Source: Vermamoeba vermiformis (taxonomy: Eukaryota). From it: DNA of 64,000 nt. Below, in pieces: positions 2,960 through 36,955 of this stretch (within the stretch, counting starts at the first letter, position 1; every line of letters begins with the position of its first letter). Made by a program: the position numbers and the translations under genes. Location of the stretch: contig JBEWZL010000101.1 in the NCBI GenBank assembly GCA_045837725.1, positions 434,001-498,000 of the forward strand, read 5' to 3'. The notes beneath the pieces were generated by a model. The model made no database searches, was not told the DNA's origin, and saw only the letters and a list, made by a program, of their open reading frames with translations.

Positions 2960-4706
2960 ATGGTAAAAAATAGTATTAAATATGACAAATTTTCCTTCAT
3001 TAATTCGCTCTTTTTGAAATAAATACTAAATAATATTTTAGGATCGGCTTCCAATCGAAATAATTAAGCTCTGCTTATCATTTTTGGATGATAAAACAGC
3101 GAGAGTGGCGCGAGTGGCGTCTATTAATTGGTTCACATGGATAAAATACTCCAACTTTAACATCCATTTTGCTCGAGCGGATACACTTCCCCTAATTATT
3201 GACAGATTATCAACCTATCAATATCCGATCAAATTAACACTTACTAAAGCAATCAACTTGTCATTTAAAGAGATAATCACCAATATCACCAAATTAACGC
3301 AACTCAAAGCGTTCAAATTGATCCCGCAGGGCGACAGTAGCCGTTTCGTACCGTCTATATATTGCGACGGACTGGCAGTGCTAAGCAATTTAGAAGAGCT
3401 AGATTTTGGCGAATACATATTTCCTCCAGATCTTTTGCCACTTTTTCCCAAGATGCGCAAAACGAAACACGCCGAATTTAATGACGACCCACTTAACGCA
3501 GACGAAGTACTCAAAACATGTACTCAACTCGAGTATTTATCCTATTTGTGCCCAGATTCGAATCTACTTCAAGGAATTAATTCATTAAAAGAACTCAATC
3601 TTAATGGTTCGCTATTGGCGAACGTTGAGTGGATCCAATTTTCGAGATTGACGAACCTGAAAGTACTTACAACATCACCTGATTACGAGCATAATATTGA
3701 CGTTACATACATGACGTGGCTTGAAGAATTGGCTGCAGGAACCCCGCACATTACCGGATTAGAAAATTGCAAGAATTTGACAAGTTTATCCATATCAAGC
3801 GCAACAGGAACAGAACTGCCAGAATTAATAGCACCACCAAATATGGAAAAATTTTCTCTTAGCATGGGGGATTGCACAAACGTGTCACTTGGAAATTTCA
3901 GCCATTTAACGAGCTTGACATCTGTTGAACTTCACTGTCAGTCTGTTTTATTGGAGACACTTGGCACTTCATTACAGCAATTAAGCTTAACAGTCAAAGT
4001 ATACAATCTTGAAAATATGAATCATTTGATCAATTTGACGCAGATGAAGATTTTACGAAATGAAGAGGTGCGGGAATTTCAACCAATTAACAATCTCACA
4101 AATTTAGTTGACTTGACAATAGAAAATGATAGTGAAGTTTATCACGTGGCAGGGGCACGCCCCTACGTGTCTTTACCAAATTTGGAAAATCTTACAAGAA
4201 TTGAGCTAGCTCTAGTAAAAATAGATGTGAAGACACTACAGCACCTGACAAAATTAAAACAAGTTAAAATCTCACATTCAGAGTTTGACCAAGAACAATG
4301 GCAGAGCTTGCATCATTTACAAAATTTAACCGAATTATTCTTGGAAGAAAACGAAGTTGATTTTGAATACGATTACAATGTGATCAATGGAATGCCATTA
4401 AAAGTACTCAACATAACTGTTCCTCGAAAATTAAATGAATGGAAGGTCAGTACTACGCTAACAACACTTGAGAACCTTTCCATTAGTTTAGCTGCCGAAG
4501 ACGATCTTTTGACATTGACAGCACTCAAAAACTTGACCAACTTGACAGTGAATGGACACTCGAATATGACTGGCGTGCACTTAACGAGTTTGACGAATTT
4601 GCAAAATGCAAGTCTTGAGTTTAAATCTTGTTATGATGTGGCTGATCTGACTTCGAAACTGACCCGACTATTTCATTTCGAAGATGATTTTGGTAAATTC
4701 TTATAA
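2960..4706 (+). CDS. F-box/leucine-rich-repeat protein
   Basis: ATG at 2960 followed directly by intron 2963-3041 gives MDRLPIEIIKLCLSFLDDK (F-box), then many LxxLxxLxL repeats. Confidence 0.85.
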
Positions 4707-14016: not shown

Positions 14017-16480
14017 ATGTTGTCAGCTGTTGATTATTCGAACCCTGCTACTACTAAGTTCGAGCACCGCGTGACCAAGACTCAAATTGTCTGCACCATT
14101 GGTCCGCCAACGAATTCAAAAGAGCAGATTATGAAATTGATTCAAGCCGGTCTCAGTGTCGTCCGTTTGAATTTTTCTCATGGTACCCACGACGTATGTA
14201 CCCGATATATCCGCAAAATACTCGAATATCAATCAAAGCAAATAATATTAAATTTTTGGTTTGATGCAGTTCCATGGATCTATCATCGCCAATGCTAGAG
14301 CCGCCGCTAAAGAGCTAAATCAGACCATTGCCATCATGTTGGATACTAAGGGTAAGTTTTTGTTATTTTAGAAAGCGTTGTAGGGACTTTAAGTACCTTG
14401 TCAATCTGGGCAAAAAACATTTTATTTTTTAAATTCGAATCTTTGCTCAAAGTTACTCGTGCAAATGCACTGTATATACTTTTGTATTATATTCTTATTA
14501 ATAACGGCGCTTAATGATGCTTACTGCTTTTTCCGTAATTAATCCAACGGACAAAAAAATCTTGGTCATCAATTACCAGTCTGAATATCATTTTAATAAT
14601 TTTTATAGGCCCTGAAATTCGTAGCGGCAAGTTGAAGAACAATGATAAAGTCTGGCTTCAAAAGGGTCAAAAATTCGCTTTTGTAACGGACCAAGATGCG
14701 CTCGGAGACGAAACCAAAGTATCAACCACTTATACTCAATTGTCAAAGACTAGCAAAGTCGGTGATAAGATTTTAGTCGAAGACGGTTTGATCCAATTTA
14801 AAGTCGAAGAGGTACGTGAATCCACGCGCGATCCGCATTTTCATACTTTTACACGTCCATACATTACCTTTCTATAACATAATTATTATATGTTATGATT
14901 ATGCTTGCCGGCTACAACATATACTAACGGAATTTATTGCAGGTTAAGGAAGGCGAAGTCGTCTGCCGTGTGTTGAACTCAGCGTGGTTGGGCCAAGTCA
15001 AGGTACATTACCTACGATTCAAATTCGATTCTACCTTCCACTTTATGCTACACTAGGCGCCTATAATAACATTAATATACTAAGCTTCTATATACTAATC
15101 GTCGTGCTTGTCTGCAGGGTATGAACTTGCCTGGTGCACGTGTCGAACTCCCCGCAGTAACTGAGCAAGACAAGCGAGATATTGCCTTCGCTGTCGAACA
15201 AAAGTTGGACTTAATCGCCGCTTCGTTCATCCGTAACGCTGCTGCTGTCAAAGAAATCAGGCACGTGACTTTTTGACCTCGCAAAATTTATGCAAATGTT
15301 CTAATATTGATATTCCGATAGAGATTTGCCGGGTGTCCGCGACGCTGGTATTAAAATTATTTCTAAGATTGAAAGTGAAGAAGGTTTGCAAAACTTTGAA
15401 GAAATTTTGAAGGTAAGATCTGCGGTGAAAATTTGACCTTTTAGGTCGTCTTATTCATTACGAATAGTAACATTACGCAGTCAATCTTTTTTGATTATAC
15501 TAATCGGGTATACTTTCCTTTTATAGGAATCAGACGGTATCATGGTTGCTCGTGGAGATTTGGGTGTTGAAATTCCCATTGAACGCGTTGCCTTGGCGCA
15601 AAAGATGATGATCGCCGAGTGCAATCACGCAGGCAAACCCGTCATTACTGCCACACAGATGTTGGAAAGCATGGTTGAGAACCCTCGTCCCACTCGTGCT
15701 GAGGCTACTGACGTCGCTAACGCCGTGTACGATGGCACTGATTGCGTCATGTTGTCCGGTGAAACTGCTAAGGGTGAGTCCTATTCTCATATAATACTAC
15801 AGCCATCGTTCATATACATACACTATACATCGAAATTATCGTTCAAAGTGATGAGCATGAAAAATGTCTCGAGTCAATACTAACTCGTTTTTTCCTTTTT
15901 AGGCAAGTACCCTATTGAGACAGTTCAAATTATGAGCAAGATTTGCTTAGAGGCCGAGAAACAAGTTGACTACCGCAAGCTCTACACTGACTTGCGTAAG
16001 CACGTGATTCACAAGCAAGGAGGCGTGATCAGCGTGCCCGAGTCCATTGCGTCGTCTGCCGTGAAGACCAGCTGGGACTTAAAGGCCTCGCTGATTATTG
16101 TCTTGTCTGACTCGGGCAGCACTGTCAGATTTGTGTCTAAATATAGACCTCACGCGCCTATTCTGTGCATCACATCCACTGAACAGACCGCTCGTCAATT
16201 GCGAACCTCACGAGGTGTTATTCCTCATTTGGTGCATGATATGAAGAACAGCAGCAAGCTTATTGAAGAAGGTATTGCTTGGGCTAAGCAACAGGTACGT
16301 CATACCAAGATCTCGGATCACATCCGAAGATCAGATCTTCAAACGAATCCAGCGCGATGTTAACAAAAATTTACTTCATAGGGCATTGTTAAGTCGGGCG
16401 AAGTTGTCGTAACTACTTCCGGTCTTATTGAAGCCACTTCGGGCTCTACCAACATTCTTAAGGTCGCTATTGTTCCTTAA
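14017..16480 (+). CDS. pyk: Pyruvate kinase
   Basis: [63 protein letters not shown]. Confidence 0.98.
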
Positions 16481-25504: not shown

Positions 25505-28334
25505 ATGGTAATTTTTATAACTAGCGCAAATTAATATCTAATTAAATAATATAGGAACAACCCCGACGCCAGCGTGCCCTTCCCGACGTAAGAAGATCCG
25601 AATTTATTTTCATTATTTTTGAAAACTCAAGTTGCCCAAACAGGACACCATACCCCCAGAGGACCTGGCCGCTTGCGTCTTCTCCTACCTAGTTTACGAA
25701 GCCAGAGATGAGAGTGCTGTTCCTGGGATAACACCCGAGGAACGTTTGACGAGGGTGCTGCTCGATCCAAACGTGAAGAGGTTTATCGGAGCCAATTGGA
25801 CCGTTATGCACGCAATTCCAGAAGCCGCGATATTCAGGAACACGACTGGTCTGGCCTATCTCGCTGTGTGTGGTCAATCGAGCTGGGCTGCACTCTCCAA
25901 CTCTGCAGCTGGTAACAGACCAGCGCTGTTACAACGCTACGTGGAAACCGTCAAAAAGCAGCTCGCCACATTCCTCAAAACCTTAGCTGATGAGAACTAC
26001 ACTACTATATTAACTGGACATTTCGTCAGCGGTACCGTTGCTGTAGAGTTGTCTGGAGGCATCTATCATGTTCGCACATTTGGTTCCGTCGAGATTGGAC
26101 CTGGCGCGGAGCTGGATCAACATTTGGTTCGCCATTACCGACTGCAAGGTGACAGCCTGTCACAACGCAATGCACCTCGCTACAACGTCAAGACAATGCG
26201 TTACCAAGGAACCCCAGAAGAAGCTCGCAGCATCGCCAACATCTTGCTTGCAATGACCGGAAGTCTTATCGGATACGACCCGAGAACACTGGACGACGGT
26301 CTTGACCTTGAAGGTCTTAAAAGCTGGTTTGAGCGGAATTACCCACTGGCTGTTTTCAACAGTGATGATGAAGATACCAACGAAGACAATGTACCTAGCG
26401 ATGAAGATGAAAAGTCGTCTGAATCTGATGAAGGCTCTTCAGATGAATTAGCGCGACGGTTCATGCGAAACAAACGGCCAGCCAATCCCCGAAATTTAGT
26501 TTGGGCGAGAAGATTCCGGTTGATGGGAAAAACCCGAACACTAACAATAATCACGAAGCCACGAAATGGCATGGCTGGCCTTTTCATTGACGACACGACT
26601 ACTACTGCCACATCAACTACGCGTAACGGAACTACGACAGAAACTGTCCAAAGAACCAGTTCTTTGAATGCTGGTGCAGAACGTGGTCTAGGTATGTCGT
26701 TTTTGACTATAATAAGCACTTCACTGACCTATTTTCGTAGGCATTGGTATTTACGAGACTTTGCAGCTGATATCTGACAGCTATTCGCGGATCCAAGAAG
26801 GAAAAAAAATTGACTCAAAGTTCTTGGGTGGCCGCATTGTTAAACTTCTGACCGATATTGGCGAAGGCTATTTGTCCGCTCAGGCCGGTGAGATCATTGC
26901 CGCTGGAGGTCAACTTCATGAAGCACTTCCTCAAGCTGTTTGGGCCATGTCGATCGCGTACTTGGTGCGAAATGGCTACAACATCATGACGATGTCCTCA
27001 GCCCAAAGAAAGAAGAAATGGGCGAATCTGAAAATGTCCGATGTCCTTGCCTCCTCAATTACCGCTACAGCCTCAATCGCACGCACTGGCTTGCAGTTAG
27101 CGCTCGTTGGTTTGAAGAACGGATACGCTGGGCCTGCTATGTTCGGTGCCGACCTCGTTGTCAATTCTGTATTCCAACTGGCTTCGACGTTAGTGCAACA
27201 TGGCTTGGACTCAAAGGAGCTCTCTGCATGTGCCAAAGCAATCGTGAAGTCCTCGATCACTGCCGGTGCTGGTGTTTTGGCCTCTATTGGCACAGCTAAA
27301 GCGATGGTGTATCTCTTTGGATCAGCGACAACTGTGGGAATGAGCGTTTTGACCGTCGGATTGGGTGCCGTCGCCTTCTTTGCTGCAAAAACGCTATGCG
27401 AGAGGTACCTTTGGGGAAGCACGAAGAAGAGGATAAAACGAAGAAAGAAGAGCAAGATTATCATCAATTGTTGAGGAAATACAATCTACCGGTTAATGCT
27501 ACTCTCGATCAAATCAAGAAAAAGTACAGAAAATTAGCGTTGGAATTGCACCCTGATCGCGGCGGCTCAGCTGAAGACTTCAAACAACTTGGCGAAGACA
27601 TAGACAAACTTACAACTCTGTTCTTGTTGTTTCAAAGTCGAAACCAGAAAAAAGACGCTGGCCTATTCTCGCTCTTGCAACGTGGTGTTGAGTCACTTCA
27701 ATCGCTCATCCGACATTTTTTGAACCCAAAGGCTCCTGTCAGCGCACAAGAAGTAGAAGAGCAACTCAGCCAATTTGATGACAATCAGCCAAATGTCATG
27801 CAAGTCGAGCCACGTGCACGACAGCGCATCGATGAGGCAATGGACAACGTCGGAAGTTCCTTTTTTGAGTTATTTCCAGGAGATTTACTACAATACGCCG
27901 CTCGGTTTACTGCGGAAGGATACGGCAACGAACAATACTTGTTGGCTATTTGCAATGACGAAGCAGCGTTGCAACGCATTTTCCAAGTTTGTGGTGTCAC
28001 TCTTCCAGGACACCAAGATCGAATCAAGCATGCCCTTCGAGAGCTCAAAAACCAACGAGAACAGGCGCTACGAACAGCTATTGTTCCTATACAACATCAA
28101 CATAGTCCACAAACGAACACAAATGCACAACCTACCAACTCTCGCATGAACGGTGTTACTCGAGAACAAAGCCAACTTTCAGTTCGTCAAGCTACAGCGG
28201 AAGAAATACTCTTGGCGTTGCCTTATTATTCGTTGGAACAATGCATGGAGGCACTAGAAATTCATTACGATAATATGGATCTTGCTATTAATTGGCTCCT
28301 TGATCAGCAAGGCGAAGCAGATTACTTTATTTAA
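25505..28334 (+). CDS. Multidomain protein: degenerate class-3 lipase-like fold, acidic linker, hydrophobic helical region, J-domain, SAM, UBA-like (one frameshift near 27410-27470)
   Basis: ILTGHFVSGTVA..VRTFGS; IKKKYRKLALELHPDRGG; LLQYAARFTAEGY..GVTLPGHQDRIKHAL; YSLEQCMEALEIHYDNMDLAINWLL; introns begin at 25508, 25588 and 26692. Confidence 0.7.
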
Positions 28335-29593: not shown

Positions 29594-29709
29594 CTCGTTA
29601 ATTGTTGTTTAAGAAAGCGAAAAGTACTTCTAAATCAGAATCTTTAAAATTGAATTATTTAAATTCTTTCAGACACGCCGTGCGCTTACGAGATCGAAAT
29701 TTCCATCGA

Positions 29710-30210
29710 TATGGTTTTAGCACCAATTTTATCGCCATTTGACTCGATATTATATATATTAGTACTGCATGATTGCAACAAGTTAATTGCTATTTTACTT
29801 TGAAGAATAGTCCGGACTTTTAGATCTGGGCAACGTTATTGAATGCAGAAGGTACAATCAAAAATACCTGGTGTGATCGTTGAAAAATACGAAGATAATA
29901 TTCAAGCAGAAAGTGCAGGGAATTTGTTACAGACGAACAAATCCGCGTTAATCCGCTCGCAGCGATATTTTGCAAATTATCGTGAACAAAATTTGTCCTG
30001 ATTAGTAGAGCTTGCCAGGTAATTTTTAAATTCAATTCATAATGATTTAATTATTTTTTTCAAATAATTTTGCTTTCTTCGGTTGAACGCTCAAGTCGAC
30101 TTACAACTAATGGCTCTATACCAGATTATTCTTAGTCTCCAAATTCTTGGCGCTGTTCAAATTGCTTCACGTAAAGCTGGATTTACGACGTGCCAAGGTT
30201 TACGACTTAC
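29710..30210 (+). pseudogene. Decayed copy of the 5' end of the F-box/LRR gene at 34780-35310
   Basis: Colinear similarity including intron 1 (e.g. TTGGCGCTGTTCAAATTG.TTCACGTAAAGCTGGATTTACGACG); ATG lost and indels present. Confidence 0.85.
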
Positions 30211-30397
30211 ATCCGAGATCTCAATGACGTAAATTCCTTAGTCCAACAACTACAAAATGTAATGATAGGTCGTGGTGTTGTCAACATTACGAACGGTCGT
30301 TTCGATTTGACCAACCAAAAATTTTATTTGCCCACCAAACGTGCGAGATCATCAACACAACGGTTTTTTCACTAATTAACGACGCAACAAGAAAGCG

Positions 30398-33300
30398 ATG
30401 TTGCGTTTACATTGCCTAAAGTTACTTGCAAAGTCAAGGTCACAAAAATACTCCTCCGTGCCCAATCCAGCTGGTAGGCAAATCTGCAAAACAGGAGAAC
30501 CTAACGTTATTAATTAATTACTCTCTATTACTATAGGAAAAATATCGCGTGCACTTCGTACAAGTAAACGGAGCTCTTTAGTTTTGGGCACTGCAAATTT
30601 TGAATCCGTTTCGAAAACTAAATCGTCCGATTGCTTAACACGTAAGAACGATCAAACTGATATTTTTCTTCTCAATGAACGATATTTATTTTAAAATTAA
30701 TAACGGTAATTTAGAAAAACGAGAAGTTTGGAAGATCCGTCGCTACTCTTCGAGCAGCAGTGATGAAGAATCGCGTAATAACCATTAATATGTAACAAAA
30801 TACTACCAGTGTGCTATATATCGTCAGATGCACAAGAAATTTTTTAATATGACCCTTATAATATTTTAATATCAAATAGTTGTTTTAAATTGGGTTCGGG
30901 ACAACCTTTTGAAGGTCCCAAAAAGTTAGGTGCGGGAGGAAAAGAGCTGCCCCGACTTTATGTTCGGGTAAAAACGGCTAGTTTTTTGGGCGGGAGCAAT
31001 ATATCGTCACTCGACCTATTCTCACCCCAAAACATCACCACAGAGGTTCCTGAGGTGTTTTTTGAGTAAATGAAACATAAATTATAATACGCCGTTGTCG
31101 CCTGCATTGGGCACCTCCACCAAAACAAGAACAGAATGAGTGTGAATGATGCGGATGTTGCATCTGTCAGTGCCAATGGTCGCAATTTCGTATAATTTAT
31201 AACAAAATATTATAGTATAATTATAGTATGTGTAAGATAATTGATGCTTTGATTTACACTGAAATTATTTTGGGTCAGCAATCAAAATTCAAAAAAATGG
31301 AAAAAAAAGACTGCTGAAATGTATGGTGGTCTTGAGTGACGATATATCGGCTCCGACGATATACAGCACACTGGTAGTAATGTGTATTAATAATTGCAGC
31401 AATCACTTGGTCTGCGGCACAGGTCGAATCTTGGCTGAGGCACACTTTCCGCGACCACGCCGGTCTTGACCTCTTCGCTTCGCTCGGTTATTCAGGCAGT
31501 CAATTATGTGCTATTTCAAGGAGCAATGATAACGCAGGGCTGCCTACAATAGCCGATCTAATTGATGTGCACCAAATACCCGATCCATTGGTTAGAGCTG
31601 TGTGTGGTGCTTTTTGGTCACTTCAAGCCAACCACGAAAAGATCCAGCCTTTTTATGAGGTCACTGAAGAGGCTATCAAAGAGAACGTCAGAACGATCTT
31701 CAAAGAAGTTAAGGAAACAATGGACAAATCTAACAGTCTGACATTTCAGCAAACACTTCAGCCCTTGCTTCAGAATCCTTTACCTCTCAAGACTGGTGAC
31801 AACTTTGTTGATTCATATTTTTCAAACGACCTTCTTGGAACTAAAAACTTCCAGTCATTTGTTGGTCATGTTGAGAATTCAACAGCAAGCTCAATTACAC
31901 AAGAGAAGTTTCTTGTTAATTTAGTTCAAGGTACGTCTGCAAAGATCAATCGAACACAATTATGCTAATTCTTCAAAGTTTCTGGTAGTGGCAAAACTCA
32001 CTATGCAATGCAGTATGCTCAAGAATATGGAGGTTTGGTTATCAGATTTGTTCGAGGTGCCCATGATAGGTTTTTGACTACAGCAAAGACTGTCTTGGAG
32101 CATGCATATGAGACAGATCTACTTATCTATAACACTGTGTCTACTTATGAAAAGGAGTTAGAATGGCTAGACTATGGAAAACAGGTCTTAGAACTGATAC
32201 CACTGACGTTCATTGAATATGCAAAGTATTTTTATGAGCAAGGTAAGTTAAACACTCTTGAGGATGATTTCTAACTGATTACAGCCACTGACTTGCCAAC
32301 GAATTCACAAAAACACACAGCATTTCAACGAGCAACAATGAAAGGTTCTGATTTAATATTGAACCTCTTCAAACAAAACCTCACAAAGAGATTCCCTCTC
32401 AAAAAACCTGGAGTCCATGCTCAGTATGCAAACTACAAAAAAGAAATATTGGAAACAGCTAAAAGCTTGGGCATTAAAGCATTCTTCTATGATGAAATAC
32501 ATCAACTGCAGGAACTACTTAAAGGCCTTTGGATTCACTATGCAAAATCTAACACCAGTGATGTGATTAAAGTCTGTGTAAGTACTTGTTTGAATGTAAC
32601 ATCCAAGTGTTTAATTGTATTACAGTTAGACAGATTGAAAAAAGAGCGTGTTGATCATGTTACTGACAAGGATGATCACTATCTCAAGCCAACTTCATTA
32701 CTTTACTTACAGGTCTTAGTAATGGAGGATTTGTGTAAAGATGAAGGCATTGCAGTAAGTTATTTTTGATAACTATCAGCAAAACACTAATGGTTGGGCA
32801 GCAAATTGGTATAACAACAAAATACTCTGCAACAACCTTGTCTAGCAAAGACACTTCTGGCCCAAGATACTCAAGAGACAGACTACAAGTTGAGGACTTT
32901 GTTTTGCAGCAACCTGCTAGTGCAGCTAAAGCTAGATTTTTGAAATTAACAACTAAAGCCTTTGGAAAGCAACTACAGTTAGCATTTAGAGCATATGATA
33001 AGGAACTTGGAGATCTTTCCTCTAGAGCTTTGTATCTATTTCCTCACATTACAGTAAGTCAGCTTACAATCAAGCAACCAACTTACAAACTTAGAATTTA
33101 ATGGATGCTGAACGTACATATGAGAAGCTGGCAAAAAAATTTATCAAAGAAGCAAAAGAGTATGCAACTAGGCAATCCTCCTCCTATCTTGAAAGCGCTT
33201 TGTCACATCGCAATTACCGACTGGTATGTTACAAACATCTCACTTTCTTGCTAATTAGCCCTGTAGACCATTAAACCTACTCTGCTCTACATTGCACTTG

Positions 33301-34284
33301 GTGGAAAGAGAATGGAATTGGATGCAACTGTTATGGAACATTTGGTAGATGCAGGCATTGCAAAGCTACAGACCCCTGTTGACAAACCCATCCTTTCAAA
33401 AGTTGAAAGAATAATGGATCCATTTATGATAGAAGCTATTCAGGCAGTACCAATAAGTAATCTAATTAAGGTAAAAAATTGCCCACTTAAGTTGCAATTA
33501 CTAAATTCAATAGGATTTTGCAGAGCAGCTCAGCATAACTCAGCTTACAAAAAATCAAGGACAAATTGGTGAGTTTGCATCTGCCCTAATGCTGAAAAAC
33601 TTTGCACTTGCAAATCAGCCCCTTGCTGAGTTGAATGACAAAATCAATTTAAGTGGAACAATTGCTTCATGGGTGGTACTTAATAGTTGGCTCATTGTCA
33701 AACAAAGAGAAGAGCTGGACATGACAGCAGACTATGAATTCTTCACCAAACGTCACCCAGATATCTACTTTGTTCCCAAAACTCAATTTGGCCCTGATGG
33801 CATTGCAGAGCTAAAAGTAGATGGAGCAAAGGTTGGCTACTTATTGGTGCATTGCAAAAATTGGGAGAGCTGTCTGAATATTGAGGGGGTTGAAGCAGCT
33901 TTGAAACCAATTAATCCAAACAACTTTTACTCAGATCTTAATGGCAGATCAAAAGCTAAAAAGGAATGGAAAGAAATTTTGTCTAAAATTGCAAAGTGCC
34001 AAAAATGGATTCGAGTAAGTTTTCGAGCAATGTTAGAAATGTAAGCTAATTTCTTGATGCAGTTAATTTTTGCCGGTGGATTCACAGACCAAGCTGTGAA
34101 GGCTGTTGCCGACTACAACAAGACTAAAACTGGAATGAGGTACCCAATCATACTTACAACCCCACTGAATCTACCCGAAAAAATCTATCTCACTAAAGAC
34201 GTGCAACCAATAACAATAGAGAAGCAGGAGGAAAAGCAATTTGATGATAGAGAACTGAAGAGAAAGTTTGGACTTCAGTTTTAA
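30398..34284 (+). CDS. Presequence + SAM + P-loop NTPase + PD-(D/E)xK nuclease (Crinkler/CR-effector-like), 12 exons, apparently intact
   Basis: MLRLHCLKLLAKSRSQK...KIRRYSSSS; WSAAQVESWL..FASLGYSGSQL (SAM); LVQVSGSGKT (Walker A); FFYDEIH (Walker B); GQIGEF..FVPKTQFGPDGI..LLVHCKNW (REase). Confidence 0.8.
30803..31377. mobile_element. Non-autonomous TIR element (MITE) flanked by TA, inside intron 3 of the 30398-34284 gene
   Basis: Left CTACCAGTGTGCTATATATCGTC, right GACGATATACAGCACACTGGTAG (one mismatch); TA on both sides; internal inverted motif ATATATCGTCACTC (~30999) vs GAGTGACGATATAT (~31334). Confidence 0.8.
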
Positions 34285-34870
34285 CGACTTACTCAATTCT
34301 ATTACGACTGCGCTTGTTTTCGGTGGACGGCAAACTTAACTTGATAATTCTGCAGCATGACTAAAATATATTAATATTATTAATAAACGAAGTATATTAA
34401 TTGTGAGTACGATTATTTTCGGCGACACGATGAACTGTAAAACAGATTTGAAATATTAAAATTTTTTATCTTAATTCTAATCGCTTTTTAAATGAATCAA
34501 ATGTGGATCGTGCATTGATATGGTACTTGATAATTATTAAAATTGTTTTCATACCTTTCAGGCTCCGTCTTTCGCACCACATCCCGAACATATAACGGGT
34601 AAGTCGTTTAGCGAGCGCATTAGCAATAAGTGGAGGGCTGCAACGATGAATATAATGACATACGTAACACAAATTTCTACGAGGTGTTTGCTCATTAGTA
34701 GTTGCAGAATAAAATAAAAGTCGTTTTTCAAATAACGTAACCCTACGAAATTTCATAAGGACCATGTGGAGCCGGCTGAATTTGGTTTTTTATTGCCATT
34801 TGATTTAGATTCGAAAACACGGTATTGATAATCGCCAGTTATTGTTATTTTGCTTTTACACAACGGCTAG

Positions 34871-36528
34871 ATGGGCAACATTATTGAAGCAGCTTCAAAC
34901 GTCTTCAAAAAGGAAGAAGAAATAGCGAACAATACTACTGAAAAATACGAAGGCAATAGCGACGTAGAAGATGCAGAGGAATTTGTGTTTACAGACGAGC
35001 TAATCCAAAGTAATCCGCTCTTGGGTCTTCCAAGCGATATTTTGCAAATAATCGTGAACGAAATTGACCCTGATTTATCTGAACTTGCCAGGTAATATTT
35101 AAAATATTCAAATCATAATTAATTTTTATTTATTTGGTTATTTTCAAATAATATTTGCTTTCTTCGGTTGACATGCTCTATAAATCAATCCTTACTAAAA
35201 CTAATGGCTTTATATCAGATTGTTCTTAGTCTCCAAATCATTCTTGGCGCTGTTCAAATTGGTTCACGTAAAGCTGGATTTACGACGGGCCAAGTTTTAC
35301 GACTCAGATTTGCAAAATCTCTTCGACTACCTGTCATTCGTGAGCTCATTAAGGTTCTCATACAAGGGCCGCATGGGCCACACCGCAACAATTACCCACG
35401 TCTCGTTAGAAAAAATGTTCAAGAAGTGGATTAACTTGGAACGAGTTGAATTGCGTGGTATTGCAGGATTTACGCCTGCCGTCGTCAAAAATATGAAATA
35501 TTTGACTAATTTAGTCTCGCTTGACGTAAAGTAAGTTATTTTCTTGAACCTTAATAATTTAAATCCGGTTTTGCTTTGTACCGGATCTTTGGAAACAACT
35601 AATAACTTTAGCATAATTGCTACTTAAAATTTTTTTTATATATCGACGGATTTACTTACGTTTGATTCGCAGAGGAGCGCACCTGAAAGATCTGCCGATC
35701 CTAGATTCGCTCAGCGCATGCACGGAACTTCGTGCGCTTAATTTGAAGAAAACTGGCTTTATTTTGACCGATCAAATACGAAGCTTGGTTAATTTACGCA
35801 CGTTGAAGTTGCCAATTTTAATGGACCCGAAAAGACCTCTCGAAGCGTTCAGTGCCTTGCTGGATCTGACCAACCTGCAAATATTACACATTGACGGTCA
35901 AACGTCGTACGATAATTACGTCACACCAATCGAATTCGGAGACACGGAGAACGGATCCGGTAAAACCACAATCTTTACAAGCCCACTCCATTTAATATCA
36001 CGCATGGTCCAACTGACCGAACTGTCCTTGCCCGCACTAGCACCGAATGAATTGATCAAAAATTTGACGACATTGACCAACTTGCGAGTACTGAAGATCC
36101 GTGGAAAGGAGCCAGATCTCGAACCTTTGTTCAGCCATGTGAGCCAACTACGAGCACTTACTATACAAGACTCGAAAATAGGCAACGAGCACTTAGTCCA
36201 CGTATCAAAGTTGCGCTACTTGCGATCACTGGATCTGACTCGCTGCAGTGACGTTACGTCAGTCGAACACGTAGATCTGCCTCGTGGCCTAACTTACTTA
36301 TCAATGGTGCAAACGAAGATCAACGACAGCACTCTCGAGTACATCTCTAAACAGTTGCCTGATCTCGTCAATCTCAACTTTCATTCGTGCGACAGCATCA
36401 CGGATGCAGGTGTGCGCGAGCTCGTGCATCTCACCAACTTGACGAGACTGTGCGTGCGCGCATATAACGCCAAACTGTCGCCGTACACTGCGTATCAATT
36501 CTTTCCGTGGAAGATCCAAATGTACTAG
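34871..36528 (+). CDS. F-box/LRR protein
   Basis: LLGLPSDILQIIVNEI..ARLFLVSKSF F-box; LRRs with LDLTRCSDVT and LNFHSCDSITDAGV. Confidence 0.88.
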
Positions 36529-36955
36529 ACAAGACTGCCAAGATCAGATCCGGGTGAATCACACAGTCTACGGAAAATCAGCCCAAGATCTGTAAGTTGT
36601 ATATATTGTATTATGATAACTTCTCGGCACCAATTATTACCAAAATCAGTACGATCATTTTTTTTTGAAACAATGAAAGATCCTGTCTTTAGATCTGTTT
36701 TGTTATGATGCTCGTATCTTCAGATCGAGTTGAACGACACCAATTTACAGCTTTTACGCGTTCATGAACAAAATGTTGATTTTGAAGCTTTACCACTGCT
36801 GTCAGTGCTGTCTCTGACACACGTCACAATCGAAACACCCAAACTTTTCTTCTTGTTTTTCTATTATTATTGCTCATTACTAGCATCACTACCACATCAA
36901 GTACTATTTACTTATTCTTAACGACTCTAATCTAACGTTCTTTTTGCCTTACAGG

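Follow-up and report, generated by a model that had tools for sequence, protein, structure and literature searches.

A single spliced gene in a 64-kb stretch of the Vermamoeba vermiformis genome bears a deep, local deficit of CpG dinucleotides. The stretch, here called the window (positions 434,001 to 498,000 of contig JBEWZL010000101.1, GenBank assembly GCA_045837725.1), is eukaryotic nuclear DNA with spliceosomal introns, and all background and neighbour comparisons below were drawn from within its 64 kb. The gene, predicted on the forward strand at 31400-34284, would encode an orphan protein of about 840 amino acids (aa) with a P-loop/DExH-like nucleoside triphosphatase (NTPase) domain, a product well supported by its motifs. 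Its CpGs have decayed through CpG-specific, transition-type changes that are confined to this gene and have left it intact. The explanation favoured here, which is probable but falls well short of certainty, is that this locus in particular has long been methylated at CpG in this lineage and has lost its CpGs by deamination, with purifying selection filtering the outcome.

Size, specificity and shape of the CpG deficit

The depleted region divides into a shoulder and a core:

31700-34011, no strand assigned: CpG-depleted island, 13 CG, observed/expected ratio (o/e) 0.16
31700-32330: island shoulder, 7 CpG, o/e 0.32
32331-34011: island core, 6 CpG, o/e 0.10

Against the 13 CpG observed in the island, 80.4 are expected (P(<=13) = 1.4e-20), and its o/e of 0.16 compares with 1.16 for the whole window at a close GC content (37% in the island, 39.5% in the comparison). 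An earlier reading of this DNA from its letters alone (the sequence-only reading) had noted by eye some six CGs in the core, three CG-free sub-intervals and two CG-rich comparison segments, and a recount bears it out exactly. The core CGs lie at 32647, 33113, 33196, 33209, 33218 and 33751; none falls in 32331-32646, 32649-33112 or 33220-33750; and the comparison segments are CpG-normal, with o/e 1.38 (47 CG) at 35900-36500 and 1.00 (12 CG) at 31401-31590. The TpG/CpA excess that the same reading had proposed to look for is present, at o/e 1.24-1.46 within the island versus about 0.9-1.05 in the immediate flanks, with CpA alone at 1.32-1.36. Relative to 25 background segments of 2312 nucleotides (nt), the island stands at z -9.9 for CG and z +4.3 for CA/TG, and a two-state Poisson model is preferred over the null with a likelihood-ratio statistic of 108.8. 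When the window is scanned in 500-bp segments with a step of 250, CpG o/e has a median of 1.20 and a 5th percentile of 0.78. Eleven segments fall below 0.6, ten of which tile 31501-34250, and outside the island none in the 64 kb falls below 0.5. The remaining segment, 3751-4250 (o/e 0.58), sits in an F-box/LRR open reading frame (ORF) with a normal total (61 CpG versus 68.2 expected, z -1.2).

The deficit persists against an expectation that takes codons and amino acids into account, a check that the sequence-only reading had named as able to refute it. With the amino-acid sequence held fixed and synonymous codons drawn from 19 neighbouring ORFs (4481 codons), the coding part of the island (1998 nt) holds 11 CpG where 88.2 +/- 7.2 are expected (z -10.7). 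In the same gene the first 300 nt of coding sequence have 15 CpG versus 18.0 expected and the last exon 5 versus 10.5, and none of the 19 reference ORFs is depleted (z from -2.3 to +4.2). Synonymous sites show how narrow the effect is. Where a base other than G follows, two-fold codons ending in a pyrimidine carry C at similar rates, 61/126 (48%) for the island versus 456/990 (46%) for the neighbours, but where G follows they do so in 2/58 cases (3%) versus 175/371 (47%). Four-fold sites behave alike, with C at 21% in both island and neighbours before non-G, and at 0/63 versus 26% before G. Codons unable to form CpG (GGN, GTN, and CTN before non-G) have a host-like third base (p=0.18, inside the leave-one-out spread of the 19 ORFs). 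The deficit is strictly CpG-specific, and codon choice is host-like where CpG cannot form.

What replaced the CpGs reveals how they were lost. NCA and NCG together account for 76/144 (53%) of NCN codons in the island versus 50% in the host (p=0.56), within which NCG is down to 2 and NCA up to 74. A free re-choice of codons by host preference predicts NCA at 36%, and with 51% seen this model is rejected (p=0.00025). The sum of C and T before G is likewise conserved, at 59% in the island and 62% in the host. The losses are NCG to NCA and NNC-G to NNT-G, i.e. transitions on both strands, as cytosine deamination at CpG predicts. Introns 2-7 of the gene contain 0 CpG in 264 nt versus 7.9 expected (P=3.8e-4), where four short introns in neighbouring genes hold 2-3 CpG apiece. 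Because the introns are depleted too, the process acts on DNA and not on translation.

Constraint on the protein has left its own mark on the survivors. Silent-type CpG in the core (codon positions 2-3 and 3-1) number 1 versus 51.1 expected, a loss of about 98%, and Arg-type CpG (codon positions 1-2) number 5 versus 13.4, so that five of the six CpG surviving in the core are Arg CGN codons. In these codons either deamination product alters the amino acid. The replacement of CGN by AGR is advanced, with a CGN:AGR ratio of 7:15 in the island versus 162:56 in the neighbours, which points to a long history.

The trough tracks the body of the transcription unit and fades at both ends. CpG o/e is 1.10 in the upstream 700 nt, 0.85 in 31400-31699, 0.58 in 34012-34284 and 1.67 in the downstream 700 nt. 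The maximum-likelihood island is 31490-34285, to which 31695-34010 is statistically equivalent; the support interval of its start is 31485-31730, and that of its end, 33965-34305, takes in both 34011 and the stop codon at 34284. The sequence-only reading had described a sharp island joined to a CpG-normal 5' end as a chimeric gene. Its depletion stands, but uniformly sharp edges do not, as the o/e steps through 0.85, 0.32, 0.10 and 0.58, and the chimeric join finds no support, since the 5' transition is gradual and falls within one continuous exon. An old domain fusion may nevertheless have taken place, as detectable family homology starts near nt 31666-31675. At the other end, a contig of the water-metagenome run X5 (33822-34185) crosses the 3' edge of the core, so this edge is not an assembly artefact of the window.

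The gene, its relatives and its surroundings

The gene model is a prediction from sequence, with splice support from insertions and deletions (indels) in X5:

31400-34284, +: predicted gene, recognised part; 9 exons, 8 GT..AG introns of 41-48 nt
31228-31231, +: candidate first coding exon, the best of 2 phase-compatible ones; ATG plus 1 nt, donor GTAAGA at 31232, splicing to 31400 in phase 1
31400-31930, +: exon A, predicted
31979-32242, +: exon B, predicted
32285-32577, +: exon C, predicted
32626-32754, +: exon D, predicted
32802-33053, +: exon E, predicted
33095-33223, +: exon F, predicted
33267-33470, +: exon G, predicted
33514-34014, +: exon H, predicted
34063-34284, +: exon I, predicted; TAA at 34282-34284

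Each apparent break in the reading frame sits in a short GT(A/R)NGT...CTAAY...YAG segment, and the spliced frame runs for 840 codons plus one terminal stop (841 codons) and is otherwise uninterrupted. A pseudogene, as two in-frame TAA and the frame changes in stop-to-stop ORFs might suggest, was rejected because removing the eight short introns restores a single ORF; an alternative genetic code is unneeded once the introns are spliced out. The Walker A loop SGSGKT arises only on removal of intron 1. A strict intron-motif census, only about 2-3 fold over shuffles, was set aside as support. Exon A requires a phase-1 partner, for which the second phase-compatible candidate, 30675-30705, is less plausible than the one listed, and the left copy of an F-box repeat described below is ruled out as the source of the gene's 5' coding exons by its frame shifts and stop. 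RNA runs X9-X11, which carry the same species label, placed 3, 5 and 12 reads on the stretch, all but two at 90-95% identity and all only partly on it, and are uninformative on splicing and expression. They fit poorly even over the neighbouring genes of 30000-36600, and the species label seems to span well-diverged strains or species.

The metagenome run X5 holds a relative 94-99% identical to the gene. All five indels in the gene (32267, 32586, 33247, 33250 and 33508) fall in predicted introns, which make up 360 of 2885 nt (12.5%) of the gene span, and 14 of the 33 substitutions listed are synonymous; a further 65 differences beyond those listed lie over the 6.6-kb stretch compared. The X5 relative is also CpG-depleted, which supports a long residence of the decay.

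The following elements of the protein were recognised or considered:

31408-31600, +: SAM-like 5' coding part, CpG-normal; Pfam SAM_PNT E=0.03, 14.8 bits versus a 24-bit cut-off
31981-31998, +: Walker A, SGSGKT, spanning the intron 1 junction; SGxGK[TS] in 6/7 rows of alignment A3
32197-32235, +: family signature IPLTFIEYAKYFY; I, P, L, F, A, F invariant in 7/7 rows of A3
32482-32502, +: Walker B/DExH-like motif FFYDEIH
33793-33864, +: PDG...(x26)...HCK segment, by-eye motif, the candidate PD-(D/E)xK core of the sequence-only reading

An exhaustive HMMER search of 1.84 billion representatives returned 6 matches, all fragments of 93-241 aa at 31-42% identity, and a profile search for further family members added none. 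A first word-indexed protein search had given no match, over a length range (254-809 aa) that would miss proteins of about 850 aa. The one row of A3 that lacks Walker A is a fragment beginning downstream of the motif, the signature IPLTFIEYAKYF is common to the relatives, and hhYDExH recurs in P0004 and P0005, the two relatives that reach this far. The NTPase label of the sequence-only reading is therefore upheld by the conservation of its Walker A and DExH-like motifs. Its other labels fared less well. The SAM profile scores under its threshold and a PDB sequence search gave no match to it, no presequence was found, and the candidate nuclease region is without a match in Pfam, PADLOC, NCBIfam or PDB. 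For the protein as a whole Pfam, PADLOC and NCBIfam gave nothing significant, the closest NTPase profile being AAA_33 (E=0.082), and PDB sequence and profile searches found no match. An AlphaFold2 model of P0005, the most complete relative, built on a 7-row alignment, reached a predicted local distance difference test score (pLDDT) of 60, and Foldseek found 0 matches to it in PDB at E<=0.001; look-alikes in an atlas are fungal clusters and low-scoring AAA_22/KAP rows, which serve as leads only. Together with the intron signals, these leads hint at a fungal affinity. Exon H modelled alone gave an unusable pLDDT of 37, and a pairwise test of the N-terminal region of P0009 against exon A was not significant.

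The sole relative for exon H is P0010, a database fragment from another assembly. It is nearly identical over 33312-33873, covering exon G, an open 45-nt read-through of intron 7 and exon H up to '...CLNI', and is unrelated thereafter. It represents either a second copy or a strain-specific rearrangement with a breakpoint at about 33873. A metagenome contig likewise joins unrelated sequence at 32430, and together these two junctions hint at room for another copy elsewhere. No paralogue of the gene was found within the window, and collections of viral, metagenome, genome and prokaryote contigs yielded no confirmed locus encoding a relative.

Around the gene the window carries pyruvate kinase (several exons), MCM10, TatD, RasGEF, a DnaJ protein and several F-box/LRR genes; pyruvate kinase, MCM10 and TatD are CpG-normal, like all 19 ORFs tested. 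The locus is framed by a direct repeat:

29727-30215, +: left copy, decayed partial duplicate of the 5' end of an F-box/LRR gene; CpG o/e 1.45
34790-35312, +: right copy, intact 5' end of the F-box/LRR gene running to about 36528; CpG o/e 1.29

The copies, about 0.5 kb each and spaced about 5.06-5.10 kb, are identical in 517 of 627 ungapped columns (82.5%) when aligned locally (29636-30325 versus 34705-35419). From the upstream region of the F-box/LRR gene the left copy extends through exon 1 and intron 1 into exon 2, and it has decayed by two frame shifts, a 3-nt deletion and a premature stop. About 4.6 kb lie between the repeats, a segment that may mark an old rearrangement or insertion, and the left copy may reflect assembly of the locus or have provided a promoter. 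The spacers between repeats and gene are CpG-rich (o/e 1.35 and 1.76), which means that a putative insert, taken whole, would not be CpG-poor.

Several side observations concern these surroundings. Immediately upstream of exon A there is a 34-nt inverted repeat (30795-30828/31352-31385) whose arms are 88% complementary and separated by 523 nt, and near it a ATATATCGTCA-like motif occurs in four copies, two direct and two inverted, including 30813-30826, 30996-31009 and 31334-31347; together they could be a regulatory repeat or an element resembling a miniature inverted-repeat transposable element. In the same upstream region the X5 strain has a 79-nt skip (31140-31220) and diverges at 31381. 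The upstream neighbour at 27300-28334 is a gene for a DnaJ-domain protein that matches SAM_1 weakly (E=0.001, below cut-off), a second SAM-like segment near the weak SAM-like N-terminus of the island gene. By eye, the pyruvate kinase intron at 15261-15321 appears to be of the GC-AG type (GCACGT...CTAAT...GATAG, 61 nt), joining ...VKEI(R) to DLPGVRD.... Rfam gave no match in the window, and among the window ORFs scanned no CpG DNA methyltransferase was seen.

Competing explanations

Long-term 5-methylcytosine (5mC) depletes CpG by deamination, and germ-line 5mC is the classical cause of such a pressure. In the proposed mechanism, an elevated rate of CpG-specific transitions (CpG to TpG and CpG to CpA) would have acted on one intact spliced gene until recently, or would act still. 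The cause would most likely be locus-specific germ-line 5mC at CpG followed by deamination, with purifying selection on the protein keeping Arg CGN while nearly all silently losable CpG disappeared, introns included. The methylated domain would follow the transcription unit, not an inserted block, fading in the first few hundred bases and in the last exon and ending at the stop codon. Such methylation could be targeted by heterochromatin or small RNA, by near-identical extra copies, or through the silencing of a gene that is selfish or looks foreign. The non-CpG features of the gene are at host equilibrium, yet its silent CpG are about 98% gone, and the pressure therefore appears to have acted in this lineage and recently. 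Of the sequence-only reading's proposal of long methylation, the decay signature stands, being CpG-specific, transition-type, present in introns and limited to a single gene; that 5mC caused it, by a local and recent process, is what this signature suggests.

Several observations weigh against this explanation. All other window genes are CpG-normal, so the methylation system would have to be very selective; no targeting cue was identified. Vertebrate CpG o/e equilibrates at about 0.2; the silent-site loss of about 98% is more extreme, and would seem to need a very high CpG mutation bias or an extra enzymatic process. Dinucleotides other than CG and its deamination products are also shifted: AG/CT is raised in the island (o/e 1.20 versus 0.92, z +4.6), AT is lowered (z -2.9), and the dinucleotide distance computed without CG, CA and TG is 0.093 for the island against a maximum of 0.091 among the 25 background segments. 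Deamination at CCG/CGG and the shift from Arg CGN to AGR would account for these anomalies only in part. The reference codon table was built on stop-to-stop ORFs and possibly includes some non-coding bases. Finally, the family is small, with 6 representative clusters among 1.84 billion, and the window holds no paralogue, which weakens any repeat-triggered mechanism.

Could the CpG-poor state have been gained elsewhere, either in a eukaryotic donor with heavy CpG methylation or in some methylated compartment of this genome, and be an unmaintained fossil in a gene that moved later? The F-box duplication that frames the locus, suggesting a past rearrangement or an insertion of about 4.6 kb, would fit such a history, as would the start of family homology close to the 5' edge, the marginal excess of the non-CpG dinucleotide distance over background and the possible second copy with a different 3' continuation seen in P0010. 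However, codon choice at non-CpG sites is indistinguishable from the host's, and a gene that had ameliorated to host codons without ongoing pressure should have recovered its CpG too. The signals of the six inner introns are of host type and these introns lack CpG as well, the spacers between the repeats and the gene are rich in CpG, the edges are graded, with the 5' edge within one exon, and viral, metagenome and prokaryote contigs hold no relative. A fossil of this kind is accordingly considered quite unlikely. Much the same evidence bears on the origins that the sequence-only reading had offered. Neither its transposon-like or viral insert nor its CpG-poor foreign donor is supported, given the CpG-free host-type introns, the host-like codons where CpG cannot form, the CpG-rich spacers and the lack of a relative locus in viral, metagenomic or prokaryotic collections. 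A recent viral, bacterial or transposon insert finds no support in the gene's eight introns and host-like codon usage, and the flanking repeats derive from a duplicated piece of a host F-box gene rather than from the ends of an element.

A mutational burst would produce the same kind of change. In a CpG-targeting, repeat-induced hypermutation resembling repeat-induced point mutation (RIP) or methylation induced premeiotically (MIP), near-identical copies would have triggered one or a few episodes. The changes are indeed CpG-specific C-to-T and G-to-A transitions and the depletion is very deep, the breakpoint of P0010 near 33873 and the metagenome junction at 32430 hint at other copies, and CpG-signature mutation of repeats is on record (PMC4352252). 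But bursts are hard to square with an ORF free of premature stops across 840 codons, or with the contrast between spared Arg CGN (5 versus 13.4) and silent-type CpG (1 versus 51), which indicates gradual loss under selection. With no paralogue in the window and a family that is small in the databases, this origin is judged improbable. Classical RIP of the Neurospora type was rejected outright, as CpA is enriched and not depleted, the ORF is intact and the window holds no duplicate. Natural selection, rather than mutation, might itself have removed CpG, perhaps for escape from silencing or from a CpG-recognising factor, and would likewise have spared Arg codons and stripped silent CpG. It is highly improbable here, given that replacements follow transitions and not host-preferred codons (p=0.00025), that introns are depleted as well and that 0/19 neighbouring ORFs show comparable avoidance. 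General gene-body methylation is not supported either, with none of the 19 neighbouring ORFs of this one 64-kb window depleted.

Locus-specific methylation with deamination thus remains the preferred explanation, and a bolder form of it can be put forward tentatively, as an unlikely outcome. On that view a host gene present in a single copy and still functional would have carried heritable CpG methylation, limited to its body, for millions of years, while the genome leaves its other genes unmethylated. The orphan NTPase would then be gated epigenetically, perhaps as a selfish or conflict gene that was domesticated and stays silenced until needed. If this were true, the loss of about 98% of silent CpG would imply a bias above the vertebrate level, pointing to enzyme-assisted deamination over spontaneous decay.

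Significance and relation to known systems

Should methylation be confirmed, the locus would be a clean natural case in which CpG methylation has persisted over evolutionary time on one specific gene of a microbial eukaryote and has left the other genes free of it. Scanning the sequence alone for CpG would then be shown able to locate such targets, and the gene would offer an intact target on which to study how methylation is recruited, whether by small RNAs, by heterochromatin or by the foreign look of a gene. The tests applied also form a compact set that tells mutational loss of CpG apart from selection, codon bias and foreign origin, namely C before G versus non-G, conservation of NCA+NCG, intron CpG and the sparing of Arg codons. 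The NTPase family of the encoded protein is tiny and lacks any assignment in Pfam, NCBIfam or PADLOC.

Gene-body methylation is typically spread over many genes with constitutive expression. The island resembles it in shape, with the first few hundred bases spared, a weaker trough in the last exon and none beyond the coding end; it differs in that pyruvate kinase, MCM10, TatD and all 19 tested ORFs are CpG-normal. RIP of the Neurospora type prefers CpA and generates stop codons. It shares with the island C-to-T transitions restricted to a defined segment, whereas CpA is enriched in the island (o/e 1.32-1.36) and the ORF is intact.

Closer parallels come from sparsely methylated genomes. In fungal repeats, CpG-to-TpG signatures have been ascribed to MIP-like methylation and deamination (Amselem et al. 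2015, PMC4352252). The island shares with them a CpG-specific C-to-T signature on particular sequences in a genome otherwise not CpG-depleted, but what is hit here is a spliced gene that is intact and under purifying selection, without self-repeats in the window, and not a degenerate transposon. Fungi place 5mC mainly on transposable elements and transcriptionally silent DNA, and several protists, among sparsely methylated microbial eukaryotes, methylate young transposable elements and silenced genes, many of these genes being virus-derived (PMC12344493). Methylation of a few silent or foreign-looking genes, in a genome that lacks general gene-body methylation, would leave just such an isolated footprint, although the island gene has no viral relative among those found, has eight introns and uses host-like codons. 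A 2026 review (PMC13297926) treats the mutagenic burden that 5mC imposes and the enzymes of CpG maintenance, among them DNMT5 and DNMT1-RFD.

The proposed domain order of the protein recalls Crinkler C-termini, for which PMC5289972 describes a P-loop NTPase with a helix-turn-helix and a restriction-endonuclease-type (REase) nuclease. The likeness consists in the order of NTPase then nuclease proposed by the sequence-only reading, an NTPase with Walker A and B motifs and a lineage-restricted family. Unlike Crinklers, the protein matches no named family and showed no Crinkler-type N-terminal domain in profile searches, and its nuclease is only a candidate, so the likeness serves as a lead only. 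Judged by its sequence, then, the locus would belong to a known class of methylation footprints, within which an intact orphan gene as the target and a near-complete depletion of silent sites would set it apart.

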